Positions 3,498-54,187 of a DNA stretch of 64,000 nucleotides are shown here, in pieces (position 1 is the stretch's first letter; every line of letters begins with the position of its first letter). The position numbers and the translations under genes are program-made. The stretch lies in the IMG/VR virus record IMGVR_UViG_3300033463_000107; one strand, given 5' to 3'. Under the pieces are notes generated by a model. That model was not told the DNA's origin. It searched no databases and saw only the letters and a list, made by a program, of their open reading frames with translations. This DNA comes from an uncultured virus (IMG/VR IMGVR_UViG_3300033463_000107) (taxonomy: Duplodnaviria; Heunggongvirae; Uroviricota; Caudoviricetes).

Positions 3498-3537
3498 AGT
3501 TGTCCTCCAGTTGTTTGGAATTTCAGAACAGTTGCCA

Positions 3538-3714
3538 TTAAGTGTCTTTCTGTTTCAAGTAATCAATGGCATTTTTCATTCCTTCATAGGTAAATGGGAA
3601 ATCAGGTATTGATATATGCTTAACCGTTTCAAATCCAAATATAACCATGCCGCCACGTTTTTCCACCCGTGATGCCATCCTCTTCCATCGTGCTTTTTTA
3701 TATGCTTTTCTCAT
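3538..3714 (-). CDS. small hypothetical protein (58 aa, MRKAYKKARW...)
   Basis: Read manually; fills the gap between junction sites at 3524-3543 and 3737-3756. Confidence 0.5.
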   Translation of the reverse strand: MRKAYKKARWKRMASRVEKRGGMVIFGFETVKHISIPDFPFTYEGMKNAIDYLKQKDT

Positions 3715-3755
3715 GCCTCATCTTCTGATTTGTTTCGTCACTTACCGCCTTTAAG

Positions 3756-3971
3756 TCATTCTCTCCATGTGTCGTAAAGTTCAATCTCGTAATCACACAT
3801 TCTGCCTTTTTCTGGTGTAAGTGTGTCTGGCTTACTTACAATTATTTCCGGTGCAAATTTCCCAAAGTCTTCCGTTTCAAGCAATGTTGTTATACACTCA
3901 TCCAAGTCGTTGTATTCCCTAACTTCTCCTTCTTCGCTCCATTGACTTGATCGTATTACGAAAACTTTCAT
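3756..3971 (-). CDS. hypothetical protein
   Basis: ORF with RBS; stop codon lies inside a junction motif. Confidence 0.65.
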   Translation of the reverse strand: MKVFVIRSSQWSEEGEVREYNDLDECITTLLETEDFGKFAPEIIVSKPDTLTPEKGRMCDYEIELYDTWRE

Positions 3972-4003
3972 GCATCCCCCTTGTGATTTAAATCGTCACT
4001 TCT

Positions 4004-4369
4004 TTACCACCGCATATAGATACATTCCAATGGGATGTCGCAGTTCCATCCCCACTCGCGCTGTTCTACAATCCATTGCATGATGCTCTGCAACGCTTCC
4101 AGCGAGGACGCAATGCCGCCCCATCCGTTGTCCGGCTCCAAGTCTTTGTATGCCAGCTTATTGAACTGAAGTTCATGGATGCCACGTTCAATGTACGGAA
4201 TGACTTCCAGAAGTGGATACCATTCGCCCTGATGGTAGTCCCATCCCATGCTCTTCACGAAGATGTCCCGGTTATTGTAGGTCGGGCTGTGTCTTTCTGG
4301 CTCCCCGATCACTGCATACTTGTCTTCCGCGCCAACAACCTTCACGCCGAAGCGGATATCATAACTCAT
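4004..4369 (-). CDS. hypothetical phage protein (PTYN...NGWG motif)
   Basis: ORF with AAGGAGG RBS. Confidence 0.7.
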   Translation of the reverse strand: MSYDIRFGVKVVGAEDKYAVIGEPERHSPTYNNRDIFVKSMGWDYHQGEWYPLLEVIPYIERGIHELQFNKLAYKDLEPDNGWGGIASSLEALQSIMQWIVEQREWGWNCDIPLECIYMRW

Positions 4370-4381
4370 AATTATCCTCCT

Positions 4382-5239
4382 TTACCATTTCACAGGTTTT
4401 CCACACTCATGGCAGTACTTCTGTTGCGGTACAATCAGCACCGTCCCGCATGCACCGCACAGGGTAAAATCCTTAGATTTTTTTACTGGGACGCCTGTTA
4501 CTTTTTTTCGCTGAAACCGTCCATACTCGCAATCTTCCCATGGAATGTCTTTGTACTCCTGTACCCGTGGATCCGCAAAGTAATTCTTCAGTCCGCGACC
4601 GGCAAAGTGCAAGATCTTCGGCGTCCCGTTGTCCCGTGATCTTGGCGTCGTCCCGTCGTAATTCATCACGCCGGAGTTGTAGATCCCGTTCAGCAGGTAG
4701 ATCCGCCCTTCGCACAGATGGTTAATGCAGTCCTGTTCCGGATAGGCGAACTTCCTTGTGTTCAGTGCGTCAATCAGCTTGTCGTCCATACCGTCCTTCC
4801 GAAGCTGGTCAAGGTTCAGGAGCATCACCCCACCGTTGATGTAGATGTTGTCATTTGTGACCAGCGGAAGATCCAGCGCACCGGCGACATAGTTTCTGCC
4901 CATTGGTGTATCCCATAGTTTGGATATGTCCCCTACCACCAGCGTGTCTACGTCAATTGACAGGATCCGATCCATATCCGGAAACAGTTTCGTCAGCGCA
5001 GCGCGCATCAGTACGACCCACGACCATCCGGTACCGTAGTTCGGCCCGCCTTCATGAAACCATGTCTGTCCGGAAATGTTCCGGCACTCCACGCGTTCCG
5101 GTAATTCAAACCCAATATCGTCGTCCTCGATCAGCAGGTACACCTTGTCAACGTCTGAATTGCATAACAGACTTTTCAGCGACGGAAAGATGTTCTTGTA
5201 GTAGTTCCTTGTCATCAGGTAGCATGCGAATTTTCTCAT
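4382..5239 (-). CDS. glycosyltransferase family 8 with C-terminal zinc ribbon
   Basis: RILSIDVDTLV (DxD), YINGGVMLLNL, EQDCIN, ILHFAG; C-terminal CGACG...YCHECG; start reassigned to MRKFAC. Confidence 0.85.
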   Translation of the reverse strand: MRKFACYLMTRNYYKNIFPSLKSLLCNSDVDKVYLLIEDDDIGFELPERVECRNISGQTWFHEGGPNYGTGWSWVVLMRAALTKLFPDMDRILSIDVDTLVVGDISKLWDTPMGRNYVAGALDLPLVTNDNIYINGGVMLLNLDQLRKDGMDDKLIDALNTRKFAYPEQDCINHLCEGRIYLLNGIYNSGVMNYDGTTPRSRDNGTPKILHFAGRGLKNYFADPRVQEYKDIPWEDCEYGRFQRKKVTGVPVKKSKDFTLCGACGTVLIVPQQKYCHECGKPVKW

Positions 5240-5244
5240 AGCAC

Positions 5245-5871
5245 TTATCCTTTCATATCGAATATTGAAATCTGCCCCTTTACCAAGTTTTGTCTGTTCC
5301 ATGTCGGATAATATTCTGTAGCAAGTTTTACCCCGTTCACCCATTTGCAGAACACCAGTTTCTTGCACACTTTTTTACGTTCAAACACGTTATTTATTCC
5401 GTGCTGGTGCATCTTTGTACTTCCTGAAGTCTCTCCAACATACGTCCAATTGTCCGCCTTGTATAAGGCGCCTTTACGATTGTCATTTTCAATGATAAAT
5501 GTTTCAAATCCAGCGACTTCTACTCCGTATTCTTTTTTCCAGTCCACCTGTACTGTTCTACGCCACAGCGAAAGTATTTGTGTTCCGAGATTTGGAATGT
5601 TCTTTTCCAGCCTGAATACCGTATTGTCCACAATGCTGTTCAGTGCAATTCTTCTGTTTTCTTTGGTAATCCCAAAGAACTTATCACGGTCACCAACAGC
5701 ATATGCAGCAGATCCGGCTGAAATAATTCCAACCACTTCGTCATCCAGAAGAATCAGGTAATGTAACTGCTGACCAACGGCCCCGTTGTTGGGTATATAG
5801 TGCCTGTCTCTGATCTCTTTGTAATCCATGGACGTCGGTTTGCAACGACGAAGCTCAATATTGTATTTCAC
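5245..5871 (-). CDS. DUF4338/DruA-like (Mom-like) protein
   Basis: RHY...LHYLI...RDKFFG...DW...YG...ETF...GALYKADNWTYVGETSG resembles the DUF4338 pattern. Confidence 0.6.
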   Translation of the reverse strand: MKYNIELRRCKPTSMDYKEIRDRHYIPNNGAVGQQLHYLILLDDEVVGIISAGSAAYAVGDRDKFFGITKENRRIALNSIVDNTVFRLEKNIPNLGTQILSLWRRTVQVDWKKEYGVEVAGFETFIIENDNRKGALYKADNWTYVGETSGSTKMHQHGINNVFERKKVCKKLVFCKWVNGVKLATEYYPTWNRQNLVKGQISIFDMKG

Positions 5872-6199
5872 AATCGTTCTCCTTCATGCAGTCTGCAAAA
5901 CATCTTTCAGAAAATCTTCGTGCAGGATTTATAGTCTGAATCGCGTTGCAAAACCGTTCATTCCATGGTTCGTCAGCCGACTTTGGCGCGTATAAGTCAC
6001 GTTGCATTTCAAGCGCTTCCAGAATCTTGTCCGCCGTAAGAAATAAGTCGAACTTCATTCTTTCTACCCACTTGTCTATTTCTTCTACTTCACGACGTTC
6101 AGATAATGCTTTCTGTATTCTTTCATGTTCTTTGTTTTTACATTCATCGCTGTAATTTTTGGCACGTTCTATACGCTCGTTAATGTCGAGCTTCCTCAT
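5855..6199 (-). CDS. hypothetical protein
   Basis: ORF coupled to its neighbours. Confidence 0.65.
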   Translation of the reverse strand: MRKLDINERIERAKNYSDECKNKEHERIQKALSERREVEEIDKWVERMKFDLFLTADKILEALEMQRDLYAPKSADEPWNERFCNAIQTINPARRFSERCFADCMKENDCEIQY

Positions 6200-6567
6200 C
6201 TGTCACTACTAACCCCTTTTCGTATCTTCTGGCGGTTAAGTCGTCTCCAAATATTTGGTTTGCTGTTTTCTTCTTTTAATCCAAGGTTAAATTCATCATT
6301 GATCCACCACATAGCGTCCATATAAGAACACCCTTGAACGACACCTGTCACAAGGGATATGCAGTCACCGCCCTTGTGACAAACGAAGCAGTAATACCCA
6401 CGATTGCCTTCATACAGTTTCATGTTCCGGTCCTGCCCATGGTGGAACGGACAGCTGCATCTGTAATGGCGATCCACATTAAGTCCAAGCGCTTTGCCAA
6501 CTTCTATGGCAGAAACAGAATTCCTTACAATGTCGCACAGCTGTTTTGCATCCATCATTTTAATCAC
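6196..6567 (-). CDS. CHC2 zinc-finger protein (primase Zn-binding domain-like)
   Basis: CPFHH...YYCFVCHKGGD. Confidence 0.8.
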   Translation of the reverse strand: MIKMMDAKQLCDIVRNSVSAIEVGKALGLNVDRHYRCSCPFHHGQDRNMKLYEGNRGYYCFVCHKGGDCISLVTGVVQGCSYMDAMWWINDEFNLGLKEENSKPNIWRRLNRQKIRKGVSSDR

Positions 6568-6875
6568 ACATTTTCCTTATCTGCGGTATTTGAAATCATG
6601 TCGTCAATCGTCCAGCAGGCGTCTCGAATCCCGAAGCAGTAGTACATCCGATGAACAGTTCCTTCTGGATAGCTTTGCATCCGTTTGTTGGAAGTTTCTT
6701 CAATCTTTTTCCTTGCAGAAACCAGCGTATCCATATCGGATGCTTTGTCGTTGAACGCAAGGCTGATTGCATTCATCACGGCGTCTTGAATGGTGGATGC
6801 TTCAGCAAATTGCATGTACTTCATAATCTCGCTAAATTGTTCATTGGAGAACATAATGCTTATACTGTCGTTCAT
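6564..6875 (-). CDS. hypothetical protein
   Basis: AAGGAG RBS before MNDSIS. Confidence 0.65.
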   Translation of the reverse strand: MNDSISIMFSNEQFSEIMKYMQFAEASTIQDAVMNAISLAFNDKASDMDTLVSARKKIEETSNKRMQSYPEGTVHRMYYCFGIRDACWTIDDMISNTADKENV

Positions 6876-6926
6876 ATTTTCTCCTTCCACTGGTGTACAC
6901 CGTTGTACACTATTGCCGCCTTTAAG

Positions 6927-7316
6927 TTACACATCGCCAGCCGGATAATAACCGCCTAAAACATTGTCACGTTCTGCAAATCCAAACTGTAATCTGATTT
7001 CCCTTTCTACATCTGCTAATGCTTTCATATATCCTTTGTGCCATTTCGTGTCTATGACCTTATAATCTTTCCCGTTGTTATACCAGAAACTCGGCATATC
7101 ATAGGCATTATGAAGTCCTAAATCTGCAAGCACTCTGTCCACCGTATTGAACCGTTCAAGGACTTCTGCGTTTACGTTTGACAATGGTTCTACCTGTGCA
7201 TAAGCGTTTTCAAATTCTGAATCTGTTCTAATTTTTCCGTCTTTTTTGCATACCTTTGCAATAGCACAACCGATGCCATAATCATCAGGAATATCAAAGA
7301 TTGCTATATATTTCAT
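6927..7316 (-). CDS. hypothetical protein
   Basis: GGAGG RBS, ATGA overlap with upstream gene, AT-rich. Confidence 0.65.
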   Translation of the reverse strand: MKYIAIFDIPDDYGIGCAIAKVCKKDGKIRTDSEFENAYAQVEPLSNVNAEVLERFNTVDRVLADLGLHNAYDMPSFWYNNGKDYKVIDTKWHKGYMKALADVEREIRLQFGFAERDNVLGGYYPAGDV

Positions 7317-7609
7317 GTCCGTTCCTCCCATAAATGGCAGTATCCATCTTTCGGCAACGTGTAATGTTCCTGTATCGGGCATCTTGTCCCGTTTGCCAGA
7401 TTGTCAGCGTTCCTTTTGCAAGCGGCACAAACATGAATCTTATTCTCTTTCGCCCATGCTTCATACAGGTCAATCGTGTCGAAAATGTACTTCAGAGCTG
7501 TATCTATTGCTTCATTTTCCGTTGTCATACGGATTGTTGTTTCCAAATCGTCTGTGCCCATCCTCGTTCTCAATTTCTTGAGGACTTCAGCCGCTTCCCA
7601 TATCTGCAT
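7313..7609 (-). CDS. hypothetical Cys-motif protein
   Basis: CAAC...C...DGYCHLW; AAGGAGG RBS. Confidence 0.65.
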   Translation of the reverse strand: MQIWEAAEVLKKLRTRMGTDDLETTIRMTTENEAIDTALKYIFDTIDLYEAWAKENKIHVCAACKRNADNLANGTRCPIQEHYTLPKDGYCHLWEERT

Positions 7610-7656
7610 TTTGTTCCTCCTTCTGTAACTTATTCGGTCAACATCTGTCCTTTAAG

Positions 7657-7932
7657 TCACACAATGCTTTCCTTTATTCGGTTAACACGTTGCAAGCAGG
7701 TGTAAGCAAGTCCGGCAACAATCCGTGCATCATCACAAATGCAATTTGCTTCCTTTGGCTTATCCCCTTCGTCACGCTGTCCAATTACAATTGCTTCAAA
7801 ATCACACAGTACAGCTTGCATTTCCATTAGAACCTTTTTTGCTTCTTGAATATCATTTTTTATTGATCTGATTCTTACTTCTTCTGCTTCGCAAAGTGTA
7901 GATTCTCTCGCACAATAGTCCATCATTCTCAT
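7657..7932 (-). CDS. hypothetical protein
   Basis: ORF with GGAGG RBS. Confidence 0.65.
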   Translation of the reverse strand: MRMMDYCARESTLCEAEEVRIRSIKNDIQEAKKVLMEMQAVLCDFEAIVIGQRDEGDKPKEANCICDDARIVAGLAYTCLQRVNRIKESIV

Positions 7933-8211
7933 TTCCTCCGTAACTTATTTATTCACTTGAAAAATGAATTAATTGCCGTCAAAAGTGTCGCAACCATAAT
8001 CATAACTATGCATATCGTCATCCCTGTCACGCACATTTCTATATGTGCTAACATTTCTATGACCTGTTCCATTTCGTCACCGCCTAAACGTTTATTTATT
8101 CATATTCGTATCTTTAAATATTTTTGTGAATTTACTGTAAAATCGGTTCCCAACTGACCATAGTCTTGTGAAGGGCGAAAACCCTATCACATTAAGAAAG
8201 GGTGTACCACT

Positions 8212-8424
8212 ATGAAAAACCATTCTCCCGTTGCCTATGCCGTTGCCGTCTGGACAGGTCGCCGTTATATCTATTTCGGCGGTTACGTTGACGACAAGCA
8301 AGCGATTACCCTGTACCCGTGCTGCGCTAAAATGTACGCACGCGAGGAAGAAGCAAAGGCGTGCGCCGACTTCCTGGATTCCGACAACCCCTGGGAAGTC
8401 GTCCCCATGTATGAAACCGATTGA
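8212..8424 (+). CDS. moron-like small protein on the opposite strand
   Basis: AAGAAAGGG RBS; followed by a GAGGGGG-CCCCCTC-T-run terminator. Confidence 0.55.
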   Translation: MKNHSPVAYAVAVWTGRRYIYFGGYVDDKQAITLYPCCAKMYAREEEAKACADFLDSDNPWEVVPMYETD

Positions 8425-8429
8425 CCTTT

Positions 8430-8455
8430 TGAGGGGGCTTCCCCCCTCTCTTTTT
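8430..8455 (+). terminator. intrinsic terminator
   Basis: gagggggcttcccccctctc followed by ttttt. Confidence 0.65.
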
Positions 8456-9149
8456 ACATCAGCTCGAATATCGTTACTTGCGCCTTTTCCGCTTGCAGCC
8501 GCTCTGTTGCCTTCTCGTAATATTCCCTGTCAATCTCGAACCCCCATGCGTCATATCCGGCGCGATGACAGGCAATAAGGCTTGAAGCAGATCCGGCGTG
8601 CGTGTCAAGTATCTTGAACCCTTTCTCTGCGTAATTGGTCAGCAGCCACGAATACAGGGATACGGGTTTCTGTGTCGGATGAAAACGGTCTTCTTTGTCT
8701 TTCATGTTCCCCTGAAGCATCCCGTTCCATATGAACCTGTATATCCGCGCAACCCCCATTCCGTTTGACATCCAGGCGTATTCACAATCGGAGAAGTCGT
8801 TTTTCATGTTGTCATATACCCTCTTGTCCCACACGACAAACGATTTTGACGGCGGCAGCATATCTGCAAAATAGTTGCCACCCCACACGATCTGGTTTTT
8901 CGATACCCTGAACAGCTCTTCAAAGTATTCCTTGCCCGGTTTCACGTCCCATTCCGCATGCTTCCTATAGTCCCGCCTGTTTGCTGCCGCGTAGCCGTGC
9001 GTTCTTATAGCCCCGCTTTTCGTGTAGTTCATAGACATGCAGCCAATCCCGTACGGAGGATCCACTATCGCCAGGTCAAAAAAACTGTCCGGGAATTCCT
9101 TCATTGCTTCCATGCAATCTGCGTTGTACAGACCCGGATTTTCGTACAT
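8454..9149 (-). CDS. N4/N6 DNA methyltransferase (beta class)
   Basis: DLAIVDPPYG, HPTQKPV, ILDTHAGSAS. Confidence 0.9.
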   Translation of the reverse strand: MYENPGLYNADCMEAMKEFPDSFFDLAIVDPPYGIGCMSMNYTKSGAIRTHGYAAANRRDYRKHAEWDVKPGKEYFEELFRVSKNQIVWGGNYFADMLPPSKSFVVWDKRVYDNMKNDFSDCEYAWMSNGMGVARIYRFIWNGMLQGNMKDKEDRFHPTQKPVSLYSWLLTNYAEKGFKILDTHAGSASSLIACHRAGYDAWGFEIDREYYEKATERLQAEKAQVTIFELM

Positions 9150-9189
9150 ACTTACCGCATCACCGCCCTTAATGATCTATAGCCGCCAA

Positions 9190-9390
9190 TTAGTTTGAAC
9201 GTTCCCCGTCAGCACAGAACCAATCTGCATCAACACAACGCATCAACCGTCCACAGAAGAATCTCGTCTTTACTGATTCATCAATAAACTTGCAATCCTT
9301 GCATAAAACCAAAGGTCGCATATCAATTTCAACCTCTGTGCCTTTGTTTTTGCTTATAGGAATCATTACCCACGCTTTCGCTTCAGCCAT
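9190..9390 (-). CDS. small Cys-rich phage protein
   Basis: CKDCK...DWFCADGER. Confidence 0.65.
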   Translation of the reverse strand: MAEAKAWVMIPISKNKGTEVEIDMRPLVLCKDCKFIDESVKTRFFCGRLMRCVDADWFCADGERSN

Positions 9391-9664
9391 CGTCTTTCCT
9401 TTCTCCGTCTGCACAAAACCAATCCGGTTTGTGAATTCCATACCCATCGCAGTAAACTGTCTTGTCTACACATTCCCCGTTATTCCATTCCTCATACTGC
9501 CCGTGTTTGCAATCCTTGCACCGCACTACATCAAAGCCGGAATGGTCTGTCATCACTTGCAGAAAGTCAATAACGTGTTCAATGTCCGTTTCAAAATTCT
9601 CATTTTGCTCAAACATCGCTTCGTGTGCCGCTGATAGTAATAGTTCCGTTGATATTACTTTCAT
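9383..9664 (-). CDS. small Cys-rich phage protein (shares its C-terminal motif with the adjacent gene)
   Basis: VVRCKDCKH...DWFCADGERK. Confidence 0.7.
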   Translation of the reverse strand: MKVISTELLLSAAHEAMFEQNENFETDIEHVIDFLQVMTDHSGFDVVRCKDCKHGQYEEWNNGECVDKTVYCDGYGIHKPDWFCADGERKDDG

Positions 9665-9699
9665 TTTGCCCTTCTTTCGCTTTAATTGCCGCCTTTAAA

Positions 9700-10152
9700 T
9701 CACCTGAACACTACTTCTCCATCTCTGAAAAACTGTTCATTCTTTGAACCGCAATGCGGACAATACCTTGATATTTTATCCTTTGGTTTTGTTATACGGT
9801 CAAATATCTTCATGTGGCATTCAGAGCAGTAAATCCCTTCATTCGCGCACATGGTCAGCACTTCCCAATGCCCTTCTTTTTCATGCCTTGGAACAACGTG
9901 CATCATGGTGTCAATGGACAGAACACAATATCCTTCTGCCAACCCGTATTCGTCTATGCCGTGATAGATATACCGCACAACCGCATCAAGTTCTTCGCCC
10001 GTATATTGTTTCCCGTCCCATTCCTTCAAGCGGAGAATGTCCCCTGTGTGATAGTCACGGTCATTCTTGCGGATTTCAAATCGCTTATCACCAAAACGGA
10101 CAGCATCGTAATACTCTGGCAGTATTTTCAACTCATGTATCGTCATTATCAT
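9700..10152 (-). CDS. DUF3850/ASCH-like protein with C-terminal zinc ribbon
   Basis: IHELKILPEYYDAVRFGDKRFEIRKNDRDY; CSEC...YCPHCG. Confidence 0.8.
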   Translation of the reverse strand: MIMTIHELKILPEYYDAVRFGDKRFEIRKNDRDYHTGDILRLKEWDGKQYTGEELDAVVRYIYHGIDEYGLAEGYCVLSIDTMMHVVPRHEKEGHWEVLTMCANEGIYCSECHMKIFDRITKPKDKISRYCPHCGSKNEQFFRDGEVVFR

Positions 10153-10426
10153 TCACCTCAAATGCTTCTGTGATTACCCCGGAAACATCACGGCAATACT
10201 GTGCAACCCACGGTGCTTCATGCTGAAAATTGTGAGGATACCCAAGCGTACACAAATCACGGATTACTTTTCTCTGTGCTTTCAGCAGATTCAGAGCATC
10301 GTCCGACCATTGTGCTATATCTTCCAGATGTTTCGCCGTGAAAAACTGCAAATCACGTTCACGGGCAAATTCTGCCCATGTGTGGATGATCTGCAAATGA
10401 GTTATTACTGTTTCCCTTTCTGCCAT
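10133..10426 (-). CDS. hypothetical protein (distant member of the DREKVIKGLE family)
   Basis: MAERETVITHL...DALNLLKAQ. Confidence 0.6.
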   Translation of the reverse strand: MAERETVITHLQIIHTWAEFARERDLQFFTAKHLEDIAQWSDDALNLLKAQRKVIRDLCTLGYPHNFQHEAPWVAQYCRDVSGVITEAFEVNDNDDT

Positions 10427-10431
10427 TCCAA

Positions 10432-10824
10432 TCACATCCTTCTGCGTAAATTGCATTGCATATTTTCCGGATGATATTCCATCACACATGACGGATAATA
10501 ATCATTGACATCTACTGTGCCTATTTTCAAAATGACGTTTGCCGTAAACGGGTTTTTAATAATCAGAATGTCGGAGTCATAGCCCATGAAAGAACTTTTA
10601 TTAGTGTGATCGCAAAATACTCTTTCAGGTTCAAATGTGTTTTTGCACGGCGTTTCAGATATTCGTAAGTCCTTCATGTAGCTTCTATATCCATCGTCTG
10701 GATCTTCTTCTGCGATATATGTCACTCCATCAAGACAGAAAAGTATATTTGTTTCCCCTTCTTTTCCTTTTGAATAATCAACCCCGGAAAACATATGCTC
10801 ACCTTTCAAGCTTTTGAGTTCCAT
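10432..10824 (-). CDS. hypothetical phage protein
   Basis: EDPDDGYRS...IGTVDVNDYYP; GGAGGG RBS. Confidence 0.7.
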   Translation of the reverse strand: MELKSLKGEHMFSGVDYSKGKEGETNILFCLDGVTYIAEEDPDDGYRSYMKDLRISETPCKNTFEPERVFCDHTNKSSFMGYDSDILIIKNPFTANVILKIGTVDVNDYYPSCVMEYHPENMQCNLRRRM

Positions 10825-10887
10825 AACCTTCCCTCCGTTCTTGCTTATATATTCATAGCCGCCTTTAAGTGTGAATCATATCTTGTT

Positions 10888-11163
10888 CTATAAGTGTGCT
10901 ACAACTCTACCGCAATGCCGACAGTAATTATCATTGATGTCTATTTGTCCACCGCAATCTCCACAAATATAGTGCCAACTTTGATAATCAAGAATTGCTT
11001 TTTCTACCTTTGGTTCAACCGCTTCCTGCTCTTTCAAAATGGCAATGGCATCGTTCAATATGCCGTAATACGAATCAAATAATTCAGCAGTGCTTGGCAA
11101 ACCATATCCAAAGAATTGTTTTATCGTTTCCAATCCTTTGATAACCTTCTCCCGGTCAATCAT
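10888..11163 (-). CDS. DREKVIKGLE-family zinc-ribbon protein
   Basis: MIDREKVIKGLE...DAIAILKEQEAVEP...CGDCG...YCRHCG. Confidence 0.7.
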   Translation of the reverse strand: MIDREKVIKGLETIKQFFGYGLPSTAELFDSYYGILNDAIAILKEQEAVEPKVEKAILDYQSWHYICGDCGGQIDINDNYCRHCGRVVAHL

Positions 11164-11193
11164 TCTGTCCACCCCATTTCGTTATTGGTCACT

Positions 11194-11418
11194 TTAAGTC
11201 ACATTGAACGAATACTGGCATTCGACTCCACGCATTATCCTGCCATCGTCAAGCTGAATCAGCGTTTCATATGGTTCTTCTCTGTCATCACGAATCACCG
11301 TTCCCATGATCCATTTTGTGGTGTCATAGTGAAAGCAGACTTTGCACCGTCTATTTACATACTCGCTTTGCTTTGGGAATCCATATGCCGTTATAGTGCT
11401 TACGCATCCCATCTCCAC
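11194..11418 (-). CDS. hypothetical phage protein
   Basis: FPKQ...VCFHYDT...IRDDREEP...LDDGR. Confidence 0.65.
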   Translation of the reverse strand: MEMGCVSTITAYGFPKQSEYVNRRCKVCFHYDTTKWIMGTVIRDDREEPYETLIQLDDGRIMRGVECQYSFNVT

Positions 11419-11451
11419 TTCTCCCCTTTTAGCGTTTATTTATTGCCGCCT

Positions 11452-11616
11452 TTAAGTCACTTCATGAACTTCTACTTCTTCAGCGTTCCACCATGAATAA
11501 ACTTCCATTCCTGCATCTTCAATTAGTTCTATCGCCCTATCTTCTGCCTGTTCCTGTGTTTCGTTTTCTTCCATCGGCATATAAATGGCCGCAACCATTC
11601 GGAACATCTTTTTCAT
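11452..11616 (-). CDS. small acidic hypothetical protein
   Basis: Start reassigned to MKKMFR to avoid overlap with the upstream gene. Confidence 0.5.
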   Translation of the reverse strand: MKKMFRMVAAIYMPMEENETQEQAEDRAIELIEDAGMEVYSWWNAEEVEVHEVT

Positions 11617-11623
11617 TCCCACT

Positions 11624-11941
11624 TCACCGACCTTCCCACAAAACAGGTCTGCCACACTCACGGCAGTATTTATCAAATTCGTTTGGGTCATGTGGGTCAT
11701 TGTCCTCAAATCCAACATACGAGCCACATTTTCCACACAACCATATCCGACCTGTTTGTTCGTCAAGCACAGGTTTCACCGCTTCCTGCTCTTTCAGCAG
11801 GGCAAGGGCATCACGCATAACTCCAGATCCCCACGGATTGTCAATATCCGGATCGAAGCATTCTTCTTCATACGGGCATCCATTGCAGTATTCGTCCGCA
11901 AGACACATCTCCAACCCTTTGATAACCTTCTCCCTATCCAT
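11624..11941 (-). CDS. DREKVIKGLE-family zinc-ribbon protein
   Basis: MDREKVIKGLEMC...DALALLKEQEAVKP...CGKCG...YCRECG. Confidence 0.7.
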   Translation of the reverse strand: MDREKVIKGLEMCLADEYCNGCPYEEECFDPDIDNPWGSGVMRDALALLKEQEAVKPVLDEQTGRIWLCGKCGSYVGFEDNDPHDPNEFDKYCRECGRPVLWEGR

Positions 11942-11969
11942 TCTCTTCACCGACCTTCCTGCCTTTAAA

Positions 11970-12317
11970 TCAATTCCACGGTTTTACGACATTAAGTACA
12001 GCCTCAATTTCTTTTACATCCATAGCTTCTTCATCTTCAGCAATTGGAATATAATCACCATAATAATTGAACTTTAAATAGCCATCTGAAATTAACTTTT
12101 GTGTTATTTCCCTTACCATGTCAGACTTGGCATATTCAAGAAATTCTTTTAAGTCTTTGATATATTCTGGAACAATGTTTCGTATTTTTAGTGTTTCAAT
12201 CTTTCGCTCACATTTTGCAAACCGAACAGGTTTTAATAGTCTTTGTTCTGCAATAATCCTTCTTTTGATTTCCCTGTATAACCTGTTTTGATTGCGCTTG
12301 TATGATTTTTTACTCAT
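11970..12317 (-). CDS. hypothetical protein (first gene after the recombinase, AT-rich)
   Basis: ORF with AAGGTG RBS. Confidence 0.65.
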   Translation of the reverse strand: MSKKSYKRNQNRLYREIKRRIIAEQRLLKPVRFAKCERKIETLKIRNIVPEYIKDLKEFLEYAKSDMVREITQKLISDGYLKFNYYGDYIPIAEDEEAMDVKEIEAVLNVVKPWN

Positions 12318-12371
12318 ACTTCACCTTCTAACTTAAATATTCATATTACAATCAATCTTGTACAACTACAC

Positions 12372-13355
12372 TTACGCATACCGCCTGTAGTCGTGCCGCA
12401 TATCGTCATCGTTAATGTTAACATAGGTCATGGTCGTATCCAGGCTTTCGTGTCCGAGGTAATGACTCACCTCGTGAATCGGCATTCCACGTCTGGCCAT
12501 TTCCGTAGCAAGTGTCCTTCTGAACTTATGCGGGTGGCAGTGCTGCACCCCAGCAATCTTCGCCAGCGTTTTCAGCATGATTCTGACACCACCTGATTCA
12601 AGTCTTTCCTTGCGTTTTCCGATAAACAGCGCTTCGTTATCGTCATTCCTGCTTGCAAGATACTTTTCCAATAGCATTCCGGTCACCGAATCAATGAACA
12701 CGGTACGTTCCTTATTCCCTTTGCCATGCACGACGCATTCCAATGTCCGGAGATTCACTGTATCCCTGTTCAGTCCAGTCATTTCCGAAACGCGGCATCC
12801 GGTAGAAGCAAGAAAATGAATAATTGCTTTGTCACGGATACTTTTGCAGCTTTGGTTCAGCCGTTCCATTTCGATATCCGTATAGATCAATTTATTTTTC
12901 TTCGCCACCTTGATGACGCCGACATTGGTGATCGGATTTTTTTCGATCAGACTTTCCCTGAACAGCCACCCGAAGTAACTGGACAGCACCTGTCTGCATC
13001 CTTCCAATGTAGAGTCCGCAATGCCGCGTTGTTTCTCTGCCTGAAGCCAGTTCCGAACGTGGTATACATTCACCTTCCGCGTATGCACGTTTGCAAACTT
13101 CATAAACCGCCTGATAATGTACACGTATCTATCAATGGTTTTCGGACTTTTGCCCTGTATCTGCATAGCCGCTACAAATGAATCCAGCAGGTCGTCCGTC
13201 GTGTCGTCACAGTCGAAAAATCTTTCCCGCATATCAAACGTTTCCAGAACATCACTGATAATTTCAAGACAGGCTCCCATGTCCGTAGCGGTCAGTTTGT
13301 CTGAAAACCTCCTCTCCAACTGCCCAAGAAATGATACTTTTGCGTCAATAGCCAT
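12372..13355 (-). CDS. XerD-like tyrosine recombinase (separate from the attP integrase)
   Basis: STGCRVSE, GKGNKER, HPHKFRR, LGH...TTMTY: complete R-K-H-R-H-Y set plus N-terminal core-binding domain. Confidence 0.92.
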   Translation of the reverse strand: MAIDAKVSFLGQLERRFSDKLTATDMGACLEIISDVLETFDMRERFFDCDDTTDDLLDSFVAAMQIQGKSPKTIDRYVYIIRRFMKFANVHTRKVNVYHVRNWLQAEKQRGIADSTLEGCRQVLSSYFGWLFRESLIEKNPITNVGVIKVAKKNKLIYTDIEMERLNQSCKSIRDKAIIHFLASTGCRVSEMTGLNRDTVNLRTLECVVHGKGNKERTVFIDSVTGMLLEKYLASRNDDNEALFIGKRKERLESGGVRIMLKTLAKIAGVQHCHPHKFRRTLATEMARRGMPIHEVSHYLGHESLDTTMTYVNINDDDMRHDYRRYA

Positions 13356-13394: not shown

Positions 13395-13595
13395 TTATCC
13401 AGCCGCCACAATGTGTTGGTGCATGCATGATTCAATTTTCCCGATAATTTCTTCAGGATATCCTTTTACGTAAATGGCGGATCCTTCAAACCCAATAGAT
13501 GTGCTTCCAAGCGAATCCCCCATCACGTATTTGATCTTCTCCGGATTAATGTAAATTTTGTCACCCTGCTTCCCTTCAAACTTAATAAGCAGCAT
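13395..13595 (-). CDS. small FlbD-like hypothetical protein
   Basis: IYINPEKIKYV...IYVKG.PEEI. Confidence 0.5.
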   Translation of the reverse strand: MLLIKFEGKQGDKIYINPEKIKYVMGDSLGSTSIGFEGSAIYVKGYPEEIIGKIESCMHQHIVAAG

Positions 13596-14995
13596 CAAAC
13601 GAACCCCCTTATGTCTGCTTCCATCTTCCTGTAGCTTCTGCACCGTTCTCTGTATGCGCGTTCACAGTATCCAATTTCCTTGTCCACAAAGTCGATTACC
13701 ACCGGCGTTTCTTTCCCTTCGGCCGTCCGACGGATTCTTCCGACCGCCTGTGTTATTACGCTGCTGAACTTGGCAGGACTTGCCAGAAACAGTCTGTCCA
13801 GAACCGGAACATCCAGTCCTTCCTTTGCCAGCGAATAGGATGCGAATAAGTACTTCTTCTTCCCTGTCCGCATGTCCTCAATCGCCTGTTCCCGTTCTGA
13901 TTTTGCTTTTTTACTCTGCATCTTCCCGTTTATGAACGCGCTTTCTTCCTGCATCTCGTACGGGAGCAATGCGCGGATCGTTTCCAGCTGGTTCAGTCTT
14001 TCCGACAGGATCAGACAACTGTGTCCCTTGTTTTCCATAATTGCCCGTGCAATCTGCTTGTTCCGGTTGTCATGCGTTGTCAGGTATTCAATCAGCTTTA
14101 CGTAGTTGATTGTTCCGTCGTCGTTCAGGCACATGTCCTCGTCCAGTTCAATGCCGGTGTTTACAGCCTTCACCATCACGCCCATGACTCTGTCCGCCAC
14201 GGATTCTTCCGGAACCTCGTACGCCACCTTCCCAATCAGCGCAAACGTGGCTTTAATCAGTCCGTCGCTTCGCGCTGGTGTTGCAGTCAATCCGATCTTA
14301 TGACGCGCGGAAAGGTGGTTCAGGACCTTCTCGTAGCGCGTGAATGATGTTGCGGAACTGCTGGCGCGATGACATTCGTCCACAATGACGACGTCCCAAT
14401 AATCCCTGTACTGGGACAGCTCCAGATTCGCCATCGTCTGAACCGTAGCAAACGTGACGCCGACGCCAACGTTCACCTTACCCTCCGTAATGGTTCCGAT
14501 CAGGCTTTCGTCCATGTACCGTAATGCCCTGTCGCGGCTCTGGTTCAGCAGGTCTGCCGTATGACATAGCCACAACGCGCGGCGCCGGAACGCTTTGATC
14601 AGGGCGATCCCCATCTGCGTTTTCCCACTTCCGGTCGTTGCCTTCAGAATTCCGTACCGCGCTTCCATCATCTTCAGCACGGCTTCCTTCTGATAGTCGT
14701 ACAGTCCCATGTCCTTGCTGCCGTAGTCAATGACGTTATCCTGTCTGAAATCCGTGTACAGCGTGGTTCCTTTCAGTAGCGGCATGATTTCCCGACAGAC
14801 TCCGAACGGAAGGATCAGCGTGTTCCCGTTCCACTCATATAACCGTAGTTCCTTTGGTGTCCTACCAAGCCAGAACCCCATCCGTTGTTTCTTTTCGTAT
14901 TCCGGATTCGGGAACCGCAGGTTCTCTTTCACCCAGTCAATCACATCGTCTGACGGATCTTCTATATATATCCTGTTCGCAATTGTTGTATTCAT
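13595..14995 (-). CDS. SF2 DEAD/DEAH-box helicase
   Basis: LYDYQ, TGSGKT, VDECH, GLTAT, EGLD, QAVGRIRR. Confidence 0.92.
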   Translation of the reverse strand: MNTTIANRIYIEDPSDDVIDWVKENLRFPNPEYEKKQRMGFWLGRTPKELRLYEWNGNTLILPFGVCREIMPLLKGTTLYTDFRQDNVIDYGSKDMGLYDYQKEAVLKMMEARYGILKATTGSGKTQMGIALIKAFRRRALWLCHTADLLNQSRDRALRYMDESLIGTITEGKVNVGVGVTFATVQTMANLELSQYRDYWDVVIVDECHRASSSATSFTRYEKVLNHLSARHKIGLTATPARSDGLIKATFALIGKVAYEVPEESVADRVMGVMVKAVNTGIELDEDMCLNDDGTINYVKLIEYLTTHDNRNKQIARAIMENKGHSCLILSERLNQLETIRALLPYEMQEESAFINGKMQSKKAKSEREQAIEDMRTGKKKYLFASYSLAKEGLDVPVLDRLFLASPAKFSSVITQAVGRIRRTAEGKETPVVIDFVDKEIGYCERAYRERCRSYRKMEADIRGFV

Positions 14996-15429
14996 ACATC
15001 CTCCGACCAGTCGTCCGTCGCTTCCAGCCACTTTTCCAAACTCCACGTCTGCGTGTTCCGGATTTCATGTTCCGTGATTCGCTTCTTCCCGCGTCCTTTC
15101 AGCGTTTCCAACCGTTCCATGGACACCATCCATATCGTCTGGTCTGGAAGCCGTAGCGCGAAGTAGCAAAGTTCTCCGGCCCGTCTTTGGAACATGCGCA
15201 TGGCAAATTTCTGATTTTCTTCTATCCGGTCAAATGAAAATCCCTTGTCGTCGCTGATGACCTTGCAGTCAATCAGCGTATGGAACTTTCCCTTCACGGC
15301 GATAATGTCTGCAGGCTGACCACTTTTATTCTGCTGCAGCACATGTACCCAAAACCCACGTTCTGCCAGCGAATGACTTAACTCCTGTTCAAACCTTCCC
15401 CCATTACTTCTATTGTCAGTTTTCTGCAT
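14992..15429 (-). CDS. Holliday-junction resolvase-like PD-(D/E)xK nuclease
   Basis: GGRFEQEL...PADII...LIDCK. Confidence 0.7.
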   Translation of the reverse strand: MQKTDNRSNGGRFEQELSHSLAERGFWVHVLQQNKSGQPADIIAVKGKFHTLIDCKVISDDKGFSFDRIEENQKFAMRMFQRRAGELCYFALRLPDQTIWMVSMERLETLKGRGKKRITEHEIRNTQTWSLEKWLEATDDWSEDV

Positions 15430-15498: not shown

Positions 15499-15876
15499 TT
15501 AAAACGGCAGTTCGTCCGGATTCGCCACGGGCGTCAGGTTGGGCTGCGCACTGCCAGCTTCTTCACCTTTTTTGCCGCTGAAATGGACATTGCTGACAAG
15601 CAGGACGATTTTGCTCCGCTTCTGTCCGTCCTGCGTCTCCCATTCTTCTGTGGTCAGTTTCCCTTCCAGAACCAGTTCCTGCCCCTTGCGGAAGTACTTT
15701 CCAAGGAATTCTGCCTGCGCAGAAAACGCCTTGCATTCAATGAACAGTTTGTTCTCCTTGTCTTTATACTTCTCGCTCCATGCCACGCGGAAGTTCGCAA
15801 CGTTGGCGCCAGAGTTTGTCGTTTTTACTTCCGGATCGGCTACCATCCTGCACTGAAGATCCAAATGATTTACCAT
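15499..15876 (-). CDS. ssb: single-stranded DNA-binding protein
   Basis: OB-fold pattern RMVADPE...KYFRKG...EGKL; acidic C-terminal DELPF. Confidence 0.92.
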   Translation of the reverse strand: MVNHLDLQCRMVADPEVKTTNSGANVANFRVAWSEKYKDKENKLFIECKAFSAQAEFLGKYFRKGQELVLEGKLTTEEWETQDGQKRSKIVLLVSNVHFSGKKGEEAGSAQPNLTPVANPDELPF

Positions 15877-17445: not shown

Positions 17446-18261
17446 TCAAACTTCGTCCTCCATCTCCCGTTCCTTCCATCCAGGAACAAACGCGTCGTTC
17501 GGAACGTTTCCGTTCAGGTAGCCAGGCCATACATCCAGCATCTTGCACTGGTGCATCTTGTCCAGCAGCTCATGGAACTTCGCCAGCCCTGCGTTCATGA
17601 CTTCCTCGCTGACCTCGATCACGTTCACGCTGTAAGGCGGTTTCTTTTCCTGTGCCACGAACAAGAACCCGGGCATCTTCTTCAGTTTCTTTGCAATCTT
17701 CACACCCTCGCAGTACATACCGGCCTGAAAGTAATATCCCAGCTTCCAGATATCGCTGTTGAACCGGAAGGTTTCCGCCGTCTGCGTGGTCTTGTAGTCA
17801 ATCACGTACCAGCGACGGTTAAACTTCACAAGCCTGTCCACTTTAATCTTGCACGGTTCCTTCGTTTCCGGATCTGTCCAGAAGAAAGCCGATTCCGTTT
17901 CGCCTTTTCCGCAGATCAGCTTTTTTGCCAGCGGACAACGCATAATGGCTTCACGCATTTCGCTCATAGTGTCATAGTCTTCCTGACTAATAATCGTCTT
18001 GCCGTCATTCTCTGCGCTGAACGTTTCCCACGCAGCCTTGCCTTCCTTCGTCCGCTTGTCGATCTGCGGCGCCACCGCATACTCGTCGCCAAAGTCATTG
18101 TTTTCAAGGATGAACTTGTGGCAGGCGCTTCCAAACGCCATCGCCGGTGTCTGTTCCATCGGGTGGTCGAGGTAGTACTTGAACTTTTCCGGCGAGTCCT
18201 CCATCTTCCACAGATCACTTCTGCGGACACCTTCTGCGCTGTTGTATTCGTTCTCATTCAT
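17446..18261 (-). CDS. RecE/exonuclease VIII-like PD-(D/E)xK nuclease (DUF3799-like)
   Basis: AMAFGSACH...CKIKVD...IDYKT...YYFQAGMY. Confidence 0.85.
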   Translation of the reverse strand: MNENEYNSAEGVRRSDLWKMEDSPEKFKYYLDHPMEQTPAMAFGSACHKFILENNDFGDEYAVAPQIDKRTKEGKAAWETFSAENDGKTIISQEDYDTMSEMREAIMRCPLAKKLICGKGETESAFFWTDPETKEPCKIKVDRLVKFNRRWYVIDYKTTQTAETFRFNSDIWKLGYYFQAGMYCEGVKIAKKLKKMPGFLFVAQEKKPPYSVNVIEVSEEVMNAGLAKFHELLDKMHQCKMLDVWPGYLNGNVPNDAFVPGWKEREMEDEV

Positions 18262-19557: not shown

Positions 19558-20520
19558 TCACCGCCCCGACGGGAATGTGGCGTTCCCATTGAAGATCTTT
19601 GCGGTCGTTACCAATGCTTCCTGCGCCTTTTCGATCCAAGCAATCCGTTCAGTAAGGCTTGCCTTTTCCTTCTCCAGTTCATAGAACTTGGCGTTCAGTT
19701 CGCCGTAGAATCCGTCCGCCTTCGTGAATACCGGATCCGCCTTCACCAGCACTGGATCTTCATGTTTCTCTTCCGCGACCGCGTTAACTTCCTTCAGGAA
19801 ATCTTCGACGCTGACCTCATCGTTTTCGGCTTCTACGTTGACATGCACTTCAACCTCTTTCACCAGCTGATCCTCCTTGACAATATCGCCATAACGTCTT
19901 TTCCACTGACCATAGTTGTGAACTGCCTTTGTCCTGTCGATTCCGTATTTCTCCATCATAAACTGGATCGGATCCGGCTGTGAAAGCGCTTCTTTAAACC
20001 TGTTAATTGCATCATAGCGCCTTACATCTTTATGGGAACGTATGTATGCTGGCATGTCTTTTTTTACGCCGCTAAACATTTCCCAGAAATTGTACTGTTC
20101 TGCAATGTCAGGATAGACACGTCCCCAGTATGCCAGCCTCTGCCTTGCGCTGTTCTTATTGTTCCCATTGTTATCAATCATGTACTGGACCATGTCAGGC
20201 GACTGCAGTGCCGCAATGAAAATCTGCCTTCTCTTTTCGGTAAGTTCCTGCCTCGTTCTTTTCACTTCAGCTTCAACAACGGGTTTTGTTGTCTGCTGTT
20301 CTTTCATCTGCTCTTCCATCTTCTGTTTCTCCATTTCGTCCAGTAATACAATTGCCCGTTGCCCTGCCCTGCAGTTTTTCTTTCCAGGACAGTCCCTGCA
20401 CTTTTCAGGCTTCTGAAGGTTCTTCATGCACAAGAACCTTTTCAGTTCATTGAGTCCCATGTTTTCAATCTTTATGTTCCGTTCTTCCGTAGCAATCTCT
20501 CGCATCTTTTTAATAGCCAT
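19558..20520 (-). CDS. hypothetical protein (two repeated helical domains and a coiled coil)
   Basis: ALQSPDMVQYM / ALSQPDPIQFM internal repeat. Confidence 0.7.
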   Translation of the reverse strand: MAIKKMREIATEERNIKIENMGLNELKRFLCMKNLQKPEKCRDCPGKKNCRAGQRAIVLLDEMEKQKMEEQMKEQQTTKPVVEAEVKRTRQELTEKRRQIFIAALQSPDMVQYMIDNNGNNKNSARQRLAYWGRVYPDIAEQYNFWEMFSGVKKDMPAYIRSHKDVRRYDAINRFKEALSQPDPIQFMMEKYGIDRTKAVHNYGQWKRRYGDIVKEDQLVKEVEVHVNVEAENDEVSVEDFLKEVNAVAEEKHEDPVLVKADPVFTKADGFYGELNAKFYELEKEKASLTERIAWIEKAQEALVTTAKIFNGNATFPSGR

Positions 20521-22615: not shown

Positions 22616-22837
22616 TTACGTTTTGTGGTTATCGTCTGAATAAAAAATAGATTCCACGGAAGTGCCGAAAAGATTTGCGATCTTTATTTTTGTTTCGTCA
22701 CTCGGAATCCGTATTCCATATTCATAGGAACAAACGGAGTTGTAACTGATTCCGAGCGCCTGTGCCATGAACCGTTTTGTCATTCTGAATGACTTACGGA
22801 GATCGCAGATGCGCTTCCCAATTTCCTTGGCATTCAA
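22616..22837 (-). CDS. Cro-like XRE HTH regulator
   Basis: HTH_3 pattern AQALGIS...YEYGIRIPS; divergent from the repressor. Confidence 0.85.
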   Translation of the reverse strand: MNAKEIGKRICDLRKSFRMTKRFMAQALGISYNSVCSYEYGIRIPSDETKIKIANLFGTSVESIFYSDDNHKT

Positions 22838-22970: not shown

Positions 22971-23324
22971 ATGAACTTTGGAAACAACCTGAGAAACCTT
23001 AGAGTTATTCGCCATATGTCACAGCAGAAACTTGCGGACGAAATGCATGTATCACAGTCAAGCATTGCCGCTTATGAAACAGGCGAACGGGAACCGTCCT
23101 TTGCCGTCGTTCAACGGTTCGCTGACTATTTCGGCGTGTCTGCGTCCCTGCTGACTCCGTTTGTAAACGCTCCGGACGAATACGTACAGTCTGTTGCAGA
23201 TACCCTGCACCAGAATCCAAAACTTCAGTTGCTGTTTGACCGCGCAAAAAATCTTTCCGAGTCTGATCTTGATGCCGTACTGAATATTGTGATCGCACTT
23301 ACAAAGGATCATGATCAAGTATGA
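22971..23324 (+). CDS. CI-like XRE repressor (no S24 peptidase domain)
   Basis: SQQKLADEMHVSQSSIAAYETGEREP. Confidence 0.85.
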   Translation: MNFGNNLRNLRVIRHMSQQKLADEMHVSQSSIAAYETGEREPSFAVVQRFADYFGVSASLLTPFVNAPDEYVQSVADTLHQNPKLQLLFDRAKNLSESDLDAVLNIVIALTKDHDQV

Positions 23325-26759: not shown

Positions 26760-26940
26760 CATTAGTATTGGAACAATCATCGCCCTGATCAAAGCCTTGG
26801 GCGGCGGCGGTGGTGGCGGATCATCCAACTACAATGATCTGTCCAACAAACCGCAGATCGGTGGGGTAACCCTACAGGGGAACAAATCCCTGTCCGACCT
26901 TGGCATCCAATCTGCTGTTGAGGTGGTGAGGTTGGCGTGA
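26743..26940 (+). CDS. small tail-fibre-like peptide
   Basis: GGGGG-NYNDLSNKPQIGGVTLQGNKSLSDLGI motif of the kind seen in fibre shafts; start uncertain. Confidence 0.6.
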   Translation: MAAVRNISIGTIIALIKALGGGGGGGSSNYNDLSNKPQIGGVTLQGNKSLSDLGIQSAVEVVRLA

Positions 26941-27722: not shown

Positions 27723-27735
27723 GGGAGGTGACAGC

Positions 27736-29363: not shown

Positions 29364-29386
29364 TAAAAGAAAGGTGGTAATTCAAA

Positions 29387-29686: not shown

Positions 29687-29698
29687 CAGACAAAAATC

Positions 29699-29728
29699 GA
29701 CCCGCCCCAATCGGAGCGGGTCTTTTTG
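29699..29728. terminator. terminator between convergent operons
   Basis: gacccgc...gcgggtc followed by ttttt. Confidence 0.7.
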
Positions 29729-29730
29729 TA

Positions 29731-30054: not shown

Positions 30055-30068
30055 CTAACACACCCCCG

Positions 30069-36358: not shown

Positions 36359-36367
36359 GCTAACCGA

Positions 36368-54175: not shown

Positions 54176-54187
54176 GCGATCACCGCC

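Follow-up and report, generated by a model that had tools for sequence, protein, structure and literature searches.

A short stop-linked motif at cassette junctions in the accessory region of an uncultured temperate phage

The DNA analysed here, 64,000 nucleotides of an uncultured virus (IMG/VR record IMGVR_UViG_3300033463_000107; "the window" below means this whole stretch), reads as a temperate phage genome with nearly all of its genes on the minus strand. The gene order runs from an early operon through a tyrosine recombinase gene (12372-13355, minus strand) into about 9 kb of mostly small genes. Gene ends along this array carry a recurring motif with the consensus GTGAYTTAAAGGCRRCAAT, which is asymmetric and about 19-22 nt long. 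An earlier note, made from the letters of the window alone, had proposed an integron- or shufflon-like system in which the recombinase moves gene cassettes at this site. We find that the motif usually ends the upstream open reading frame (ORF), recurs in other cattle-gut phages with unrelated backbones and is a frequent joint between cassettes. The reading we favour, with a probability of about one half, is that it is a conserved linker of cassettes in hyperplastic regions, which doubles as short homology for modular shuffling.

Results

A repeated motif at gene ends

At one mismatch or fewer, a 13-mer core of the motif occurs five times in the window, in each case on the minus strand and between 3.7 and 11.5 kb, against 0.10 copies expected; none of 100 shuffles matched this count. 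The excess is gone at three mismatches (20 copies versus 13.65 expected), and we therefore scored the weaker sites of the earlier note with a 22-nt position weight matrix (PWM), which was built from 13 seeds derived by regular expression, five of them from the window, and is thus partly circular. That note had listed ten gene ends with the same site. Eight of them stand, at 17.7-30 bits, while the sites listed at 9175 and 7638 reach only 9.8 and 10.6 bits, scores at which shuffles give about nine matches per window. By our own reading these two are half-sites, each lying in the usual register at a gene end and retaining one half of the motif. Ten positions in the window score at least 14 bits, every one of them on the minus strand; one, near 44938 (14.6 bits), looks like chance.

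The sites, all on the minus strand, can be followed down the array from the recombinase. The GGCAGG variant at 11955-11976 (17.7-18.8 bits) supplies the TGA that ends gene 11970-12317, at an offset of -2, and has contig joints at 11967 and 11968. The best match, at 11442-11463 (30 bits), ends a small ORF starting at 11616 through its internal TAA (offset +3), and a site with a divergent centre at 11184-11205 (18.1 bits) ends gene 11194-11418 at the same offset of +3. At 10855-10876 (23.9 bits) the motif lies 18 nt past the stop of gene 10888-11172. The TGA of the site at 9685-9706 (27 bits) ends a DUF3850/ASCH-zinc-ribbon gene (9700-10152). Both half-sites lie further along: 9179-9200 keeps the right half, at the end of gene 9190-9447 and with several contig joints at 9196-9202, and 7642-7663 keeps the left half, at the end of gene 7657-7932 with the stop TGA in the usual register. 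At 6912-6933 (27.8 bits) a TAA just before the motif ends gene 6927-7382. The last two sites are a GGCGGT form at 3741-3762 (20.2 bits), whose TGA ends gene 3756-3971 at an offset of -2, and a GGCAAC variant at 3528-3549 (18.3 bits), whose internal TAA ends gene 3538-3714 at an offset of +3.

The motif had been thought to be confined to the array, and this does not hold: a further site lies in the late region, at 36343-36364 (minus strand; 16.7-16.9 bits), just after a tail-fibre-like gene (36368-37108). The stretch 36284-36364 (minus strand) consists of three tandem, progressively degenerate copies, of which those at 36309 and 36284 score 8.7 and 10.5 bits, and the tandem copies occupy the gap between gene 36368-37108 and the lysis genes.

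The motif is locked to the upstream stop codon

The stop codon is supplied or overlapped by seven of the eight strong sites in the region, as had been noted earlier; the exception is the site at 10855, with its stop 18 nt upstream. We examined the anatomy of the motif in 59 pooled sites taken from all loci that carry at least two sites. Conservation covers TTAAAGG together with about 7 nt ahead of it and about 15 nt beyond, and stops there. The motif provides the stop of an ORF of at least 35 amino acids at 41 of the 59 sites, through an internal TAA (within TTAA) at 27 and a stop just before it at 14. An ORF ends within -8 to +3 of the motif at 49 sites, compared with 54 of 1180 random positions within -7 to +3. 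The fixed partner of the motif is the upstream stop; its distance to the next start codon varies between -3 and 122 nt.

The 59 sites show no dyad symmetry. The site had been read as a 7-6-7 core with inverted arms, the usual form for a tyrosine recombinase; the left and right 7-nt arms are in fact complementary at 2.64 of 7 positions on average, no better than in shifted registers (1.27-2.73).

No sigma-70-like promoter or intrinsic terminator coincides with any site in the region, where promoter-like matches number 19 against 19.4 in shuffles; a reading of the motif as a sigma-70 promoter was ruled out on this basis. A plain Shine-Dalgarno reading was likewise ruled out for most sites, which have a separate ribosome-binding site, and the common form of the motif carries GGCAAC. 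Downstream of the sites listed at 6908, 7638, 10851 and 11438, the separate ribosome-binding site reported in the earlier note is visible in the sequence. We also dropped an RNA hairpin between TTAAAG and a complementary block downstream, which by count could form at about 11 of the 59 sites and at none in the window. A separate observation concerns GGCGGTGA, a Shine-Dalgarno sequence with C for the central A. It lies on the minus strand at 8079-8084, 9162-9167, 19560-19565 and 54182-54187, precedes start codons at normal spacing, and seems to be used as a working ribosome-binding site in this phage group. A limited literature search on intergenic motifs of rumen phages found no prior description of the motif.

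The motif recurs in phages with unrelated backbones

Megablast of the array region against 50,697 phage records gave no match, and by terminase the closest cultured phage, at 45% identity, is Clostridium phage Maintenon. Of the region's sampled words, 92-95% are contained in two runs that come from a single bovine gut metagenome sample; none of the runs listed for the region is on record as RNA. In two runs from other studies (X3 and X5), parts of the segment from 9.1 to 12.2 kb (9097-12165) are covered at a likeness of at least 88% and many backbone bins are uncovered, from which it follows that some cassettes are carried by other genomes in other samples.

The exact form of the motif seen in the window is rare among relatives of the recombinase, with two matches in 57 loci; the variant with a GGCAAC centre recurs and is the commoner form there. 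A 14-mer scan of viral contigs returned mostly single, chance-like matches among the matches listed. An 18-nt degenerate pattern found 30 stretches in viral contigs. Among 28 new motif loci none carries a recombinase homologue within the DNA examined, and several hold arrays: seven sites in L270, six in L259, five in L278 and three each in L253, L268, L272 and L274. The same 18-nt pattern applied to genome contigs gave at least 120 matches, approximately the chance estimate, with no convincing array and no host among the matches listed.

Five whole virus records (G001 to G005) carry six, five, seven, three and four sites, respectively, clustered in each case within 1-6 kb on one strand, with none on the opposite strand. 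G001 is syntenic with the window over most modules; G002 and G005 share almost no backbone genes with it. In the window and in all five records the arrays are confined to variable regions, and the replication and structural operons of these phages do not contain the motif. The only recombinase homologue in the five records is in G001, where it is 43% identical and lies on the opposite strand about 58 kb from the array. The recombinase clade is absent from G002 (100% complete, five sites) and G005 (94% complete, four sites), and G001, G002 and G005 each have an ordinary integrase of the PF00589 family.

We found no protein family or repressor common to all array-bearing genomes that could read the motif. 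The DUF3850/ASCH protein was rejected as a reader, being absent from G001, G003, G004 and G005, as was the zinc-ribbon family of genes 10888-11172 and 11624-11950, which is also present in motif-free loci.

Cassette breakpoints in or at the motif

The clearest comparison is with L008, a related locus whose recombinase is only 66% identical in protein sequence. Window positions 10856 to 10443 (minus strand) match L008 at 96.6% DNA identity over one leader and gene (10432-10824), and we regard this as a recently exchanged cassette. The homology starts directly after the motif, the site at 10855-10876 forming the left boundary of the shared cassette, and its far end falls at another TTAAAGG-type junction in L008. 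At this boundary the two genomes carry different variants of the motif centre. Positions 10443-10848 are also about 95.6% identical to a 3138-nt contig of run X3. A second locus, L220, is 92% identical from 10441 on, and there the motif stands in front of the copy, spaced as a ribosome-binding site would be. In a third, L214, 81% identity continues up to 9691, inside the site at 9685-9706, and then gives way to divergence. A search for further pairs of sites that share one flank only returned just the L008 and L214 cases and one unrelated coding match.

Larger rearrangements are visible against G001, in which a 1.9-kb block with four motif sites stands between the SSB and resolvase genes, adjacent to one another in the window. 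About 7 kb comprising the recombinase and array in the window corresponds to about 0.9 kb in G001.

The earlier note had looked ahead to alternative junctions in sequencing data, and these were found: contigs of four metagenome runs (three samples and three studies at most) link cassettes of the window in orders unlike its own, and the joint is often at the motif. These are joints on assembled contigs, with positions converted to the coding strand by hand. We considered 12 of 25 joints, those listed with intervening letters, and counted ten, two being inside paralogous gene cores. By our own reading six of the ten lie in the motif or at its edge (12344/9401, 11450/11626, 11968/10443, 10866/9196, 11935/10853 and 11967/6931). 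In one of them a contig of run X2 lacks 11451-11625, the joint at 11450 falling inside the site at 11442-11463; contigs of run X5 have joints at 10866 and 6931, in the sites at 10855-10876 and 6912-6933. In addition, two contigs from the bovine gut run terminate precisely on a site's first base (6927 and 10870). Most "skip" joints on contigs have sides of 20-30 letters and lie inside paralogous gene cores, and these were not used. Mosaicism in this phage group does not require the motif, but the motif, where present, is a frequent joint.

The array also contains two paralogous gene pairs, 9190-9447 with 9383-9664 and 10888-11172 with 11624-11950. Many contig joints lie inside the conserved cores of these pairs, which suggests domain-level recombination between array paralogues.

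The recombinase next to the array

The recombinase gene (12372-13355, minus strand) encodes a XerA-like protein of 327 amino acids that matches PF00589 at 126.8 bits and carries SAM-like N-terminal domains. The canonical lysogeny integrase is a different gene, at 23321-24385 on the plus strand (phrog_1 integrase, E 1.7e-35), with helix-turn-helix repressor families adjoining, so that 12372-13355 is a second recombinase of this phage, as had been proposed. Its complete catalytic set is also confirmed: alignment to the XerA-like structure 4a8e, which with 5hxy is among its best solved relatives, shows all six catalytic positions (R, K, H-x-x-R, H, Y). The protein passes the XerA-type model NF040815 (225.8 bits; cut-off 220) and is below the cut-offs of the XerC and XerD equivalog models. 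It also falls short of the integron-integrase model TIGR02249 (59.4 bits versus a cut-off of 265, over residues 57-228 only), the IntI model NF011946 (36 versus 435) and the tyrosine-type DNA invertase model NF007371 (33.2 versus 222).

IMG/VR contains 19 relatives of the recombinase, at 47-67% identity, and metagenome contigs contain no homologue closer than 70% identity. Seven of the 20 loci of this clade carry motif sites of at least 14 bits, 12 in number, all on the recombinase strand and 207-1859 nt downstream, with none upstream; in the window, too, the gene shares the orientation of the genes that follow it, and no motif precedes it. Four other loci, L012, L017, L018 and L020, with about 10 kb of downstream DNA each, lack any site on the recombinase strand (in L017 the opposite strand gives one match at the 14.0-bit threshold). 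The expected co-occurrence of clade and motif thus breaks down on both sides, with arrays of four to seven sites in genomes without the clade and clade loci without a site. We found nothing that links recombinase and motif beyond adjacency in part of the clade. On the reading we favour, the recombinase would be a further item of the variable region, probably an integrase or resolvase with its own site.

Several other features of the clade deserve mention. L011 (4532-5638) and L195 (9978-11081) share the recombinase gene and less than 110 nt of flank per side at 90% identity on otherwise dissimilar contigs; the shared stretch barely exceeds the gene, so the recombinase, too, is a module that is exchanged. 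Directly upstream of the recombinase in L003 (about 9910-10000) and L178, L005 (about 5590-5680), L010 (about 9910-10000) and L185 (about 8430-8520), we read a stretch resembling the T-arm and acceptor of a tRNA 3' half, as at an attP core; ARAGORN and Rfam gave no call for it in these relatives. In about ten relatives (L005, L008, L010, L011, L013, L015, L019, L182, L185 and L195) a conserved cysteine-rich small gene overlaps the recombinase stop in an ATGA-type arrangement. This gene, which is missing from the window, could encode a partner of the recombinase.

Other genes of the window

The lysogeny switch comprises a cI-like repressor (22971-23324, plus strand) beside the lysogeny integrase and a Cro-like gene (22616-22837, minus strand). 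The early operon contains an exonuclease (17446-18261), SSB (15499-15876), a Holliday-junction resolvase (14992-15429) and a helicase (13595-15046); a ParB-like gene is listed between the exonuclease and SSB.

The small-gene stretch also encodes an N6/N4 DNA methyltransferase, a family-8 glycosyltransferase, a DruA/Mom-like protein and a primase zinc-ribbon protein, and past it lie a sliding clamp and a second methyltransferase (326-2566). The DNA-modification cargo of the variable region (326-1489, 4382-5871 and 8454-9149) consists of the two N6/N4 methyltransferases, the glycosyltransferase, which has a C-terminal zinc ribbon, and the DruA/Mom-like protein. The picture of a co-oriented array of short genes is accurate for the motif sites, all on the minus strand, and less so for the genes: some are 208-328 amino acids long, and the array is broken by a plus-strand gene at 8212-8424, with a terminator-like hairpin at 8431-8448. 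The plus-strand ORF encodes 70 amino acids without a family match and is convergent with the methyltransferase gene, the GC-rich hairpin lying between them. Elsewhere, a plus-strand block without family matches (26937-30506) separates the lysogeny module from the lysis region and is adjoined by a homing-endonuclease-like gene (30489-31298, minus strand); parts of the stretch 26937-31298 have homologues in G001, G004 and G005.

Discussion

A proposed linker doubling as short homology

We propose that the motif is a linker between cassettes. On the coding strand it closes the ORF before it, with a stop available in two of the three frames (TGA, and TAA inside TTAA), and is followed by the next gene's leader and ribosome-binding site. 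Since it flanks many unrelated cassettes in many unrelated backbones, it offers a short patch of identity for exchange, and one in an acceptable place, where cassettes could be inserted, lost or re-ordered. The exchange itself would be performed by general or relaxed homologous recombination, for which we cite the phage's own exonuclease, SSB and Holliday-junction resolvase genes. We infer both this pathway and any role of the motif in gene expression, translation included.

Several observations weigh against this proposal. A stretch of 19 bases is very short for homologous recombination, and the differing motif centres after the L008 exchange are not what simple crossing-over in the conserved left half would predict. 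The unambiguous joints at 10856 (L008) and 12344 (a contig of run X1) both lie just right of the GGCRRC centre and that at 11450 (X2) at its left edge, and a staggered site-specific exchange would also give joints at the edges of this centre. Nor is the motif always involved. The remaining four of the ten counted joints leave gene 9190-9447 at 9199-9202 and enter another gene's ribosome-binding site without a motif, a well-covered joint (10427/11619) falls at a ribosome-binding site and start without a motif, and L182 shares gene 3538-3714 from the start codon on, with no motif upstream. Breakpoints between relatives had been expected to fall inside the motif. They lie in or at it in L008, L214 and L220, and in only a small share of the wider sets: a motif stands within 25 nt at 2 of 41 internal breakpoints in 56 non-redundant loci of the recombinase clade, most of which are motif-free, and at 4 of 28 breakpoints among 26 motif-bearing loci.

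Possible site-specific recombination

The edge-of-centre joints raise the question whether the motif is a true site-specific site, similar to attC or pdif, at which a tyrosine recombinase cuts either side of the GGCRRC centre to insert or excise cassettes. The enzyme might be the XerA-like protein, an ordinary phage integrase or a host Xer protein acting in trans. The sites are without exception in direct orientation, each at the 3' end of a promoterless ORF, and in three or four events the joints flank a 6-7-nt centre, at its right edge for 10856 and 12344 and at its left edge for 11450. In the seven clade loci that carry it, the motif is confined to the DNA that follows the recombinase. A PF00589 protein of some kind is encoded in each complete or near-complete array-bearing record. 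Sites of tyrosine recombinases can be asymmetric, as in the R64 shufflon.

We nevertheless consider this explanation unlikely. The motif lacks inverted arms, and its centre differs among sites (GGCGGC, GGCAAC, GGCAGG, GTGACC and others), a mismatch between partner sites that classical tyrosine recombinases would not accept. G002 and G005 lack the XerA-like clade, its member in G001 is distant from the array on the opposite strand, and four clade members with about 10 kb of downstream DNA have no site on the recombinase strand. The stretch read as a tRNA 3' half next to the recombinase of some relatives points to use as an ordinary integrase. The integron or shufflon of the earlier note finds no support, because the IntI and invertase models fail and both inverted arms and opposite-strand sites are absent. 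Its idea of cassette shuffling at the motif survives as a junction role, seen in L008, L214, L220 and six of the ten contig joints, and not with the recombinase as driver. A more particular version, to which we assign a still lower probability, would make the motif the site of an unrecognised integron-like cassette system of gut phages, one that is short, asymmetric and hairpin-free, with a recombinase in trans and exchange at the GGCRRC edges. If so, small accessory genes would circulate as excisable units among unrelated phage backbones.

A possible signal in messenger RNA or on DNA

The strict coding-strand orientation and the register with the stop codon invite a different explanation, in which the motif is purely an mRNA signal. 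It might couple translation by termination and reinitiation, mark a site of RNA processing, or be the operator at which a regulator controls the translation of early genes. The motif would then travel with cassettes, and breakpoints would coincide with it only since viable exchanges fall between genes. Its GGCGG form resembles a Shine-Dalgarno sequence and stands at ribosome-binding-site distance from a start in L220 and at one site in L004; GGCGGTGA precedes the starts at 8079, 9162, 19560 and 54182; and by our own reading a subset of sites is followed by a block able to pair with TTAAAG. The sites are also without promoters or terminators. Set against this, the commoner GGCAAC form has little Shine-Dalgarno complementarity left, and most sites have their own ribosome-binding site further on, at variable distance. 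Neither the replication operons nor the structural operons of these phages contain the motif, and no candidate family for a reader protein is common to all array-bearing genomes. A signal of this kind, acting with no part in exchange, therefore seems to us improbable.

Least probable by far are stoperator-like operators, at which a phage DNA-binding protein blocks transcription elongation: the sites are indeed asymmetric, intergenic and in one orientation relative to transcription, the layout given for stoperators in the available text of PMC9283540, but they are clustered in 2-9 kb of accessory genes and not spread genome-wide, they are common to phages with different repressors and backbones, and they keep register with stop codons in two frames, a constraint for which a DNA operator has no use.

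Relation to known systems

For the linker reading that we favour, the closest described system appears to be the PeSLs of T4-type phages. According to the available text of PMC2839356 and PMC4122927, these are conserved intergenic cassettes in hyperplastic regions, where they delete, insert and swap ORFans and yield mini-circles; the authors attribute the shuffling to homologous recombination and compare it with integrons. Both elements, as far as those accounts go, are conserved, intergenic and repeated among small non-essential ORFs of hyperplastic regions, with joints of indels and replacements between relatives falling in the element (for the motif, in part of the cases), and for neither is a dedicated recombinase known. 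They differ in make-up: a PeSL is described there as a sigma-70-like early promoter plus a terminator stem-loop, several tens of bases long, whereas the motif is neither promoter nor terminator, is three to four times shorter (19-22 nt) and is locked to a stop codon. The motif occurs in temperate Bacillota phages with unrelated backbones. It is known here from assembled contigs, whereas mini-circles are reported as demonstrated for PeSLs.

The array resembles an integron in its co-oriented promoterless ORFs, in the recurring site after each, which often holds the stop, and in cassette orders that vary among genomes. Unlike an integron, it has no attC-type hairpin-forming inverted repeats, and its recombinase is co-oriented and not divergent, fails the IntI model and is absent from other array-bearing phages. 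The Rci/sfx shufflon differs in that motif sites are never inverted, in the window or in G001 to G005, and in that the recombinase fails the invertase model. In Acinetobacter plasmids, the available text of PMC9947245 and PMC12907356 describes short pdif sites that likewise bound small gene modules shuffled between replicons, these modules being served by host XerC/XerD. The window's recombinase, too, belongs to the Xer family. The pdif sites are 28 bp long, with two inverted 11-bp arms, and usually alternate in orientation, whereas motif sites are asymmetric, all direct and without dyad symmetry.

Among regulatory sequences, stoperators, at which the L5-type repressor of Cluster A mycobacteriophages acts, are described in the accessible part of PMC9283540 as short, asymmetric and intergenic, in one orientation to transcription and in many copies per genome. 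By that description they are genome-wide and go with one repressor family, whereas the motif is clustered, fixed to stops and travels across unrelated phages. The start-associated sequences of Cluster K mycobacteriophages lie at a fixed short distance before start codons; the motif's fixed partner is instead the upstream stop, with the next start -3 to 122 nt away. As presented in the text available from PMC3203893, those sequences share with the motif their short length, conservation, gene-boundary position and coding-strand orientation.

The boundary or linker sequences between modules of lambdoid phages involve a similar idea, of short conserved sequences at gene boundaries that guide modular homologous exchange. 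We know of no lambdoid boundary described with a comparable 19-nt consensus across dozens of junctions.

Implications

Hyperplastic regions hold most of the unknown, fast-changing genes of phages, and how these genes move is largely unsettled. Shuffling through conserved regulatory cassettes has been shown only in T4-type phages, with PeSLs. Here we describe a much shorter, stop-linked linker in temperate Bacillota phages of the cattle gut, shared by phages whose backbones otherwise overlap in almost no genes. Should it prove to be an exchange point, it would provide a sequence handle with which to delimit mobile accessory cassettes in metagenomic contigs, anti-defence and DNA-modification genes included.

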